A DNA stretch of 64,000 nucleotides from Raja brachyura. Lineage: Eukaryota. Positions 11,001-14,000 of the stretch are shown in pieces. The stretch covers positions 14,198,001 to 14,262,000 of the forward strand of contig OY740814.1 of assembly GCA_963514005.1 (NCBI GenBank), in the 5' to 3' direction. Below the pieces are notes generated by a model, which did not search any database, was not told where the DNA came from, and saw only the letters and a program-made list of their open reading frames with translations. The position numbers and the translations under genes were made by a program. Numbering within the stretch: the stretch's first letter is position 1; each line of letters begins with the position of its first letter.

Positions 11001-14000
11001 AGCAGCCACACAGAGAAGCAATCCGCAGATATGCATACCAGGTATGTTCAGGTTAGTTTCAGATTTTCTGCAGCAATTTAGATACACAGAGGACTTCAGT
11101 AGATTTGCAAAGTATTGCAATGGCTAGAGGATGTGTTGTGATAGCAAAAGGCACCACAGTAAATGCCTCAAGAAAATGGCTGTTTCACCATAACACAGCA
11201 GCAGCAATCAGTGAGTTCTACCACCTCAACCTGTGCACTCACCTCAGGTAAGCAGACAGTAGAGTTACAGTTCTCTTGCTGTGTTTCTGCAAATTGAATG
11301 CATCTGCCAATTTCCCCATCGATGTACACATTCCATGTAAGCAGTTAAACTGCCAATTATAAACTAACCGCATGACAAATTCACCGCAGTGCCTGATGTC
11401 TGAGGACACTTATGGTTCCAACTCAGCATTGCTTTGCTAGTTTAAGGTACATGTAGCTCCAGCCTTGTCTGACCTGCACCACAATCCACATTTCTCTGTT
11501 TGCTCAAAATCTAAAATACATCTCTACTTCCCTTTAAAGAGTTTGTTTTTTACATTTTTGCCCTTTCCCTTTTCCGGCTGCCCTGATAATGACTGCCTGT
11601 AAACCCTCGCTTGATACACAGAGTGAAAGCCCTGGCCTGAATCCCAATCCGACCACTACAATCCCATGCTGTCAGCGCAGACGCACCTCCTTGCACAAAT
11701 TCTGTAAATCTGCTCCAGTAAATCCTGCGGTCACTGCTCCTAGCTCCTTCAGGCACACGCCATCCAGTGGTGTTTTGGAAGTGCAGATCCTCAGAATGGA
11801 AAGTCTTGTCTAACGTGTAAAAAGCGTTAATTAGTAACCAAGAAAAACAGTGTAGAGATTATCACAACACAAATTGACCACTATCTAAACAATTTAACTG
11901 AAAATGCGATTGTCTGATCATTTCTTGTTGTTTTTGGAACCTTATACATTATCACAGGCGCTGATATATTACTGTGTCAGTGTGAGGTTTGGAAATACTT
12001 TATATAAACACAGGACTGTCCTAAGCGTGACATACAAACGTGCAAATGAACTGCAGAAGTGTAGTACACCTTTATCCACAGCTCTTTGTGTCTTCAAAAA
12101 ACTCCAATAAAGTGGCCACACATGATTTCACTTCCCTCCCCGTTGTGTTGACCTGATCATCCCGAATTGTTTGCAAATGCTTTGCTGTGACACTTTTAAC
12201 AATAGCGTTTAACGGTTTTCCCAATGACAGATGTTAAAACTGACAGGACCGTAGTTTCCTGTTTTCTGCCTCCCTCCCATTTTGAATAAAGTACATTTGC
12301 TACTTTCAAAACTAATGCAATCGTCCCTGGAATTAGGAAGTTTAGAAAAATTGAAACCTAGGTCAACCATCTACTGTTTTTGAAGGGCTTTCTCAGGACA
12401 CAGTGACCCATACGTCATCAACTCCAACATGTCACTCGGATGATTGTTATTTTCCGACTTACTCTCTCTTCCCGATTCTGGAATTTGAGCTATTTCTAGG
12501 GCATTATATTTAGATCTCTAATAGCTGTGCTCTGCACTGGTTTATCAAATGATGGCCACTTTAACAAAAACAGTCAATGTACGATACGATAGAACTTTAT
12601 TTATCCCAAGAGGGAAATTGATCTGCCAACAGCCATAAAAACACAAAATATATGAAACATGAAATTAAAGTGACGAGTGGAAAGGCTTGGGGGATGTGCA
12701 AAGATTGGGGGGGGGGGGGGAAGGCAAGGGGGGAAGTCAGTCTCAGTCTACCCCACTACAGAAGGCGGAGGAGTTGTACAGAGTGATAGCCACAGGGAAG
12801 AAGGATCTCCTGGCATTCTGTCCTGCATCTTGGTGGAACCAGTCTCTATTGCTGAAGTTACTCCTGGGGTGGAAGATTGCAACCTTCACGTGGTCCGCCC
12901 TGTTTCGACTAATGCAATCAACTCGACGTGCACAAACAGAAGATCAAATAGAACAAGTTGTCCTACAACTTTAGGCTGTGCACGCCACACGAAAGAAGAA
13001 GAAGAAGAAGTTACTCCTCAGATTGACCAGTGTGTTATGGAGGGGGCGAGCTGTATTCTCCAGGATGCTCCGTAGTTTGAGGAGCCTCCTCGCCTCCAGG
13101 ACCACCTCCCATGAATCCAACTTCACCCCCAGGACAGAGGCAGCCTTCCTGATGAGTTTGTTGATCCTATTGGCATCCGCAGCCTGACGTGCTGTCCCAG
13201 CACATGGCAGCGAAGCAGATGGCACTGGCTACCACCGAATGGTAGTACATCTGCAGCATCTTACTGCAGACGTTGAAGGAGCGGAGCCTTCTCAAAAAGT
13301 ACAGCTGGCTCTTCCCTTCTTGTACAGGGCCTCACCATTCCTGAACCAGTCCAGTTTACTGTCCAGGTACACTCCAAGGTATTTGTACTCCCTGGAAAAC
13401 TGCACATCCACACCATTGATGGAGACATGGGACAGGGGTGTTCCTCTCCTCCTAAAGTCCACCACCAACTTCTTAGTCTTGTCGGTGTTGAGTTGCAGGT
13501 GCTTCAGCCCTCACCACTCAACAAAGTCGTTGACTACACCTCTGTATTCAGCTTCCCTCCCCTCACTGTTGCAGCCCACAATTGCAGAGTCAACTGAAAA
13601 CTTCTGCAGGTGGCAGGAGACGGAGCTATTTCTGAAGTCCAAGGTGTAGATGGTAAACAGGAAGGAGAGAGGACCGTCCCCTGTGTTTCTCGCCACCATG
13701 TTCGAGACACAGTTCTGTAGCCTGATGTACTGTGGTCGTCCAGTCAGGTAGTTGATGATCCAGGATAGCAATGGAGCATCCACCTGCATCTTCATCAGCC
13801 TGCGCCCTGGCAGTGCAGGCCGGATCGTGTTAAAAGCACTGGAGAAGTAAAAAAAACATGACTCTCACAATGCTTCCCTGCTTAGCCAGGTGAGCATAGG
13901 AACGATGGAGCAGTTGGATGTTGGCACCCTCAACCCCCATCTTTGTTTGGTAAGCGAACGGCAGAGGGTCCAGGTAGGGTTTTACAGGTGAGTGAGCACC

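Follow-up and report, generated by a model that had tools for sequence, protein, structure and literature searches.

The 64,000-nt stretch of the Raja brachyura genome analysed here (hereafter the window; GCA_963514005.1, contig OY740814.1, positions 14,198,001 to 14,262,000 of the forward strand) holds, in an intron of the gene AFG2B (SPATA5L1), a decayed fragment of a long interspersed nuclear element (LINE) into which a much smaller and unrelated element, the subject of this report, has inserted. The insert is 141 nt long (12866-13006 on the plus strand; positions are those of the window, and element nucleotides are numbered from G1 = 12866) and is flanked by two copies of one 12-bp sequence (Table 1). 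Its first 54 nt can be drawn as a minimal self-cleaving ribozyme of the hepatitis delta virus (HDV) type, and the whole is probably to be understood as a ribozyme-headed, bipartite LINE derivative, that is, as the two ends of a LINE joined by internal deletion, predicted to cut itself immediately before G1 and to be mobilized by LINE protein.

Table 1. Coordinates of the element, its parts and its surroundings in the window (TSD, target-site duplication; RT, reverse transcriptase; UTR, untranslated region)
Feature	Position	Strand	Remarks
TSD, left copy, 12 bp	12854..12865	+	terminates immediately 5' of G1
Predicted minimal HDV-like ribozyme	12866..12919	+	fold descriptor, covariation, sub-threshold Rfam match
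Part from parent LINE 5' end, element nt 1 to ~76	12866..12941	+	LINE head alignments, nt 1-73, 87-95%
Junction filler, 21 nt, specific to the mini-element	12942..12962	+	no good colinear LINE match; 10,001 exact genome matches
Part from parent LINE 3' end: last three codons, stop (12972-12974), 3' UTR, (GAA)n tail	12963..13006	+	
TSD, right copy	13007..13018	+	repeat in window; empty site
Second copy	5723..5860	-	94.9% identical over 138 nt; 5' base as in focal copy; P3 middle pair broken
Host site: RT fragment of an unrelated, decayed LINE, holding the insertion	12700..13650 (approximate bounds)	-	
AFG2B (SPATA5L1), host gene	7930..23328	-	exons near 23.3-22.0 kb, 20.5, 18.3, 17.8, 15.35, 11.75, 8.0 kb

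The fold that the first-pass annotation drew in the first 53 nt is borne out part by part, P1, P2, P3, L3, the near-absent P4 and J4/2 all being present in the sequence. P1 comprises 7 bp (12866-72/12895-901), with G1.U36 as its base pair and an internal U5.G32, and P2 (12875-81/12913-19) comprises 6 bp, or 7 with G10-C54. The 3-bp P3 (12882-84/12892-94) carries the loop L3, TTCACGT (12885-91), P1.1 is a single pair, C22-G37 (C12887-G12902), and a 6-nt remnant takes the place of P4. Every pair of the resulting nested double pseudoknot (P1, P2, P3 and P1.1) is present in the focal copy, and the predicted catalytic residue, C44 (C12909), is the first base of J4/2; L3 has the conserved U and G of the class. 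The catalytic C is found in 87 of 95 copies, in all 14 LINE heads counted and in all six families discussed below, although in the latter the descriptor demands it. The fold descriptor, which was tuned after these heads had been seen, matched 8 times in the 1,067,818 bases scanned, every match lying at the 5' end of an element of this kind, whereas 533,873 bases of Markov control yielded no match; an earlier and stricter version overlooked most heads and drew one spurious reverse-strand fold.

The predicted cleavage site had also been claimed to fall exactly on the element boundary set by the 12-bp TSD, and here too the coordinates are right. An empty site is provided by L077 (L-numbers are locus labels of the sequences compared), a paralogue of the host LINE without the insert, the two flanks of which overlap by exactly 12 bases, so that the 12-bp repeat is a true target duplication. 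The focal family supplied 73 junctions for this comparison, each with a recognizable tail and aligned from nt 1-2. The TSD terminates at G1 in 49 of these, stops one base short of it in 13 and two bases short in 2, while 9 showed no TSD; where one extra base intervenes, it is T in 6 cases, G in 3, A in 2 and C in 2. Uniform 5' ends, proposed as a check on the ribozyme, are therefore seen in 49 of the 64 resolved junctions, the other 15 lying one or two bases upstream. In a second mini-element (see below), all 11 resolved TSDs terminate at G1, and so do the TSDs, 11 and 12 bp long, of two full-length LINEs from other families; six further long copies showed no clear TSD. The cut site of the predicted fold thus coincides with the 5' boundary of the element. 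The second copy of the focal element in the window, as had been observed, starts at the same base, but with a C opposite a C in the middle of its P3 it is likely inactive as a ribozyme, and it supports the 5' boundary rather than activity.

The origin of this head was reached from L054, a match to the element's tail with coding sequence upstream, from which stepwise 5' extension led to L121, a full-length if decayed LINE of ~3.1 kb that carries the element head at one end and the element tail at the other. In between are remnants of a single open reading frame (ORF) with an APE endonuclease (EN), RT and a C-terminal CxC-H-C motif. LINE heads align with the 5' part of the element (Table 1) before running into a short UTR and the ORF, and nt 98 onward is common to 29 of 30 LINE 3' fragments; the only LINE sequence in the mini-element is accordingly a 5' end (nt 1-76) and a 3' end (nt 98-141), without the ORF. 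The reliance on a LINE, possibly of Ingi/Vingi or RTE type, that the first-pass annotation foresaw has thereby acquired an autonomous LINE sharing both ends, while its description of the element as a SINE (short interspersed nuclear element) has to be given up: strictly speaking the element is no SINE but an internally deleted, bipartite LINE of the NARTc/SIDE type, and its HDV-type fold is inherited from the parent LINE. A true SINE, with a head derived from a small RNA and transcribed by RNA polymerase (Pol) III and with a pseudoknot arisen by chance, would share the size, copy number and precise 5' ends seen here, but we hold it to be very improbable, and it is largely refuted by a head that is the LINE's own 5' end, colinear with it. 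As already claimed, there are no recognizable Pol III boxes; neither an A box (at up to one mismatch) nor an exact B box nor a tRNA gene was found in the element, and the descriptor background is zero in 534 kb.

Between the two LINE ends, the filler (nt 77-97) has the look of duplicated 5' UTR sequence combined with an inverted stretch of the 3' junction, and was likely templated at the deletion junction. It supplies the left arm of the inner hairpin of a nested stem-loop downstream of the ribozyme, whereas both halves of the outer stem are already present in the parent LINE's two UTRs. This stem-loop exists as the first-pass annotation described it, but its stability is not above chance (z = -1.40; 20 of 200 shuffles equally good), and the inner stem-loop was for this reason rejected as a sign of function. 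Elsewhere, L035 (~1380-1530), L151/L349 and L384 are one-off internal-deletion derivatives, each with a different junction, so such fusions arise repeatedly. In a further group of parent-LINE copies (L070, L073, L093, L120, L122, L131, L137, L142, L148, L149 and L150), the 5' part is inverted relative to the 3' part in a twin-priming-like manner, and in several of these the inverted 5' piece ends at nt 75-84, just past the ribozyme.

Relatives of the parent LINE were sought by protein search of the genome and of metagenome contigs (25-45% identity), and the descriptor matched upstream of the endonuclease start at 6 of 41 loci, amounting to five further families, with the match lying 150-200 nt before the ORF motif. 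When one head is taken from each of the six families, both sides have changed in 13 of the 17 pairs, including all six pairs of P2, which is the outcome that a covariation check of P1-P3 had been proposed to look for; the set was picked by a descriptor that demands pairing, and so full pairing is built into this figure and detracts from it, though sequence turnover is not. P1.1 itself covaries, from C-G to U-A. Against this turnover in the stems, none of the six families has lost the catalytic C, the G1 wobble, L3 or P1.1. P4 lengths differ among the five further LINE families with 5' HDV-type folds (L249/L346, L250/L347, L256, L263/L345 and L261/L344; metagenome L233, L216, L214, L211 and L221), owing to which a full-length MAFFT alignment misplaced P2; only the 5' domain was scored in that alignment, and the remainder by script. 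In the MAFFT alignment of 8 heads, 96.6% of cells are paired, two-sided changes occur in 7 of 11 pairs, and the covariation score is 0.597 versus 0.267 when shuffled, a value reached by 0 of 500 shuffles and exceeding all slid controls. A second, independent mini-element of ~168 nt, built from another LINE family (L352-L366, e.g. G000:C5:46952505), was present at 14 of the 15 loci fetched from 58 exact matches to a head 24-mer. In L155 (~420-560), a related LINE head shows by eye an HDV-like outline with a long L3 insert, outside the range of the descriptor.

The expectation of very many copies genome-wide is amply confirmed. In the 2.70-Gb genome, where copies were counted by exact patterns and reversed-pattern controls gave 0 every time, there are 5,563 matches to a head 22-mer, 6,828 to a tail pattern and 10,001 to a 21-mer from the element-specific middle, so that the copies number 10,001 or more. 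When a locally duplicated cluster at 14.56-14.96 Mb is left out, contig C1 (1-29.5 Mb) shows the exact middle pattern in 32 of 55 head matches and 32 of 63 tail matches, and these recapture ratios suggest a family total of ~17,000-20,000 copies. The excluded cluster (G000:C1:14.56-14.96 Mb, L023-L030) is a duplicated block in which one element copy, with a common internal deletion, recurs many times, and at L008/L009 and L013 pairs of elements are fused tail-to-tail as inverted repeats. In 99 copies picked by the middle 21-mer, the head is kept in 95 and the alignment runs from G1 in 80; TSDs of 7-16 bp in 77 of the 99, and the (GAA)n tail, are marks of target-primed reverse transcription. Two subfamilies (50 and 44 of 95 copies) diverge from their majority letters by ~4% and ~8%, the second figure being perhaps inflated by alignment. 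All 17 pairs and the core bases are kept in 34 of the 95 copies, and at most one pair is broken in 51; with an intact fraction taken from these 95 sampled copies, a sample that favours young ones, ~3,500 intact heads genome-wide is a fair lower estimate.

Against this body of evidence must be set a number of observations that tell against a functional ribozyme in the head, or against parts of the scheme in which it is placed. A single poly(A) RNA run placed 837 reads on the element; 239 of them cross its 5' end into unrelated flank, both strands share one edge profile, and no pile-up of read starts was seen at G1. The boundary-crossing reads establish that read-through RNA exists; as a test of cleavage the run is weak, being perhaps from another species, of a library type that loses 5' ends and possibly dominated by a few loci, and many copies are antisense or mutated. 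First mates fall ~290 on the plus versus 185 on the minus strand, an uncontrolled comparison that, for a library of the usual stranded type, would point to a shortage of sense transcripts. No Rfam model matched in the window at gathering level when the query proposed by the first-pass annotation was made, and the three HDV-type models that matched below it all include P4; one of them, HDV-F-prausnitzii (RF02682), aligns exactly to 12866-12919 but at 16 bits against a gathering threshold of 44, and HDV-type models on the heads of the other families also stay below threshold, at 23-28 bits. The stability of the head given by ViennaRNA, a program that cannot model the pseudoknot, is not unusual (z = -0.04). 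Upstream of the endonuclease, 35 of the 41 loci were without a descriptor match, these loci being largely truncated, decayed or more distant. The heads of the parent LINE are less precisely bounded; many begin within nt 3-17 instead of at G1, often at inversion junctions. Finally, non-CpG decay in the copies is similar in the head (3.2%) and in the adjacent 5' part (3.6%); there is therefore no sign of host selection on the copies, which, once inserted, decay roughly neutrally.

Taken together, such observations might be read to mean that the fold was inherited in an inactive or non-catalytic form, retained for protection of the 5' end or for protein binding, with the 5' ends of copies set by transcription start and a short template. 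A P4 reduced to 6 nt, a P1.1 reduced to one pair, reads that cross G1 and low Rfam scores would all fit, and some trypanosomatid heads have indeed lost activity (PMC4035085). We nevertheless regard loss of activity as unlikely. The catalytic C, G1 wobble, L3 and P1.1 are constant in six families despite the change in the stems, and minimal HDV-like ribozymes without P4 are active (PMC10879173). Moreover, the three master-level changes in the head between parent and subfamilies (nt 8 in J1/2, nt 45 at the second position of J4/2, and U5-A32 to U5.G32) are all structure-neutral and lie outside the core. Self-cleavage before G1 is accordingly favoured with good confidence as a prediction from fold and covariation.

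The life cycle that we envisage for a ribozyme-headed LINE derivative would begin with transcription of a copy by Pol II, driven by a host promoter (as read-through) or by one within the head itself. The pseudoknot would then self-cleave 5' of G1, using C44 and Mg2+, to leave a defined 5'-OH end, and as the cleaved ribozyme would remain on the element RNA, every full-length copy would keep it. The LINE protein would bind the 3' 44 nt, nick DNA and reverse-transcribe from the (GAA)n tail, giving rise to TSDs of 8-16 bp; mobilization in trans by such a protein is the step of which we are most confident. Because the element is short, nearly all copies would be full length and able to found new rounds, and this would account for the thousands of mini-element copies versus the tens to hundreds of the parent LINE.

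Whether an internal promoter is absent, as the first-pass annotation supposed in calling the element promoterless, is in our judgment evenly balanced. It is possible, although we lean the other way, that the head is dual in function like Pr77 of L1Tc, with the first ~76 nt serving as internal Pol II promoter as well as ribozyme; host read-through would then be dispensable, and the ribozyme would only trim upstream sequence. A capped template is expected to leave more extra G at 5' junctions, as in L1, whereas an extra G is found at just 3 of 64. On the other hand, the LINE-derived 5' part spans 73-80 nt and so exceeds the 54-nt fold, insertion of the element is not site-specific, and L1Tc and NARTc, of the sister clade, combine both functions in 77 nt (PMC3383444).

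As to the clade of the parent, its closest proteins are mostly ~1000 aa with EN and RT but without RNase H, and Vingi has been described as compact, its one ORF coding for APE endonuclease and RT and, again, for no RNase H (PMC13708176). The parent LINE has this outline (single ORF, APE EN, RT, no RNase H), as would an RTE element; its C-terminal zinc motif, which gives weak zf-RVT matches, together with its other motifs, favours Vingi over RTE. We thus regard a place in the Vingi clade as likely for the parent, an assignment that is drawn from architecture and belongs to the weaker points of the scheme.

At the locus itself, the focal copy lies between the AFG2B exons near 15350 and 11750 and is antisense to the pre-mRNA, from which it would therefore not be cut out. 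The second copy is oriented as the gene (sense), ~2 kb beyond the AFG2B stop; the sense copy is thus the broken one, but two cases make an anecdote only. The LINE fragment that received the insertion is presumably Rex1/Babar-like, judging by its motifs. Elsewhere in the window, overlapping ORFs at 53349-56968 (-), with inverted repeats near 52700-53050 and 57100-58465, have, judging by their motifs, the look of a DIRS-type retrotransposon (gag-like, RT, RNase H and tyrosine recombinase). Two mutually related ORF fragments at 8848-9537 and 31834-32421 (-) presumably represent the endonuclease end of a Penelope-like element.

Were these predictions to hold, Vingi would join the LINE clades with 5' ribozymes, and all four clades reported to give rise to ORF-less bipartite elements would then have one, a link that PMC5786205 leaves open. 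The 54-nt predicted ribozyme would be a natural P4-less representative of the HDV type in an animal genome, its thousands of variants amounting to a structure-function library, and the purging of mass ribozyme insertions from the sense strands of genes would become testable. Vingi-1 serves RNA-only gene-writing platforms that retain its 5' UTR (PMC13708176), for which a head that cleaves itself, and a minimal template of 141 nt, would be of practical interest.

A concrete candidate source would also be at hand for the mammalian CPEB3 ribozyme (RF00622), which resembles the focal head in L3 and in its one-pair type of P1.1 but is single-copy and intronic and possesses P4. The focal head does not match the Rfam CPEB3 model; the head of the second mini-element family shares with it an identical 6-bp P2 and 6 of 7 L3 bases, scoring 23-24 bits against a gathering threshold of 35. 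With this shared P2 helix and near-identical L3, and with a Vingi relic, X12_LINE, in the human genome (PMC5753468), the CPEB3 ribozyme might be a domesticated head. The match is short and the connection a lead; our literature search found no paper linking the CPEB3 ribozyme to Vingi. The broadest proposition, that HDV-like ribozymes are general in Vingi, that several thousand active P4-less ribozymes here cut host transcripts when sense, and that the CPEB3 ribozyme is a domesticated head, is as a whole improbable.

Our literature search, with Repbase, Dfam and patents outside its scope, found no report of a Vingi ribozyme, nor of one without P4 that a vertebrate carries in thousands of copies, and no report of such an element from shark or lamprey or among eukaryotic minimal HDV-like ribozymes. 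The list of ribozyme-bearing clades in PMC5786205 leaves out Vingi. HDV-like ribozymes have been reported in lamprey, lancelet and sea urchin (PMC8256844), some of which may be Vingi heads. The bipartite, ribozyme-headed design is already known.

The closest parallels are the trypanosomatid NARTc, RIME and SIDER of the L1Tc/ingi clade, sister to Vingi, which likewise join LINE ends in non-autonomous form, bear an HDV-like ribozyme that cuts before +1, and are dispersed. NARTc, for example, is 263 nt long and combines 77 nt from the start of L1Tc with 30 nt from its end, its head being both ribozyme and promoter (PMC3383444), and SIDERs have spread such ribozymes through trypanosomatid genomes (PMC4035085). 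NARTc differs in its poly(A) tail, in a ribozyme with P4, in a parent with RNase H and in an activity shown in vitro; the focal element, in an animal host, has 141 nt, a (GAA)n tail and a predicted ribozyme without P4. The R2 SIDEs and R2/R1 hybrid SIDEs of Drosophila (PMC3414825) similarly combine a 5' ribozyme with a LINE 3' end through internal deletion and are mobilized in trans, but they are specific to ribosomal DNA, co-transcribed by Pol I and rare, their R2 ribozyme is long, and the endonuclease of R2 is restriction-like. Also known are bipartite non-autonomous Vingi elements such as the Vingi-1_EE derivatives (Kojima 2011, as cited in PMC5786205), with which the focal element shares its clade, by architecture, and its origin by internal deletion. 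As for the ribozyme itself, the nearest likeness is to the minimal HDV-like or theta ribozymes of metagenomes and gut phages, located next to tRNAs (PMC10879173), which are likewise nested pseudoknots without P4 and with the catalytic C first in J4/2; the focal head, in contrast, is carried by a retroelement that an animal genome holds in thousands of copies.
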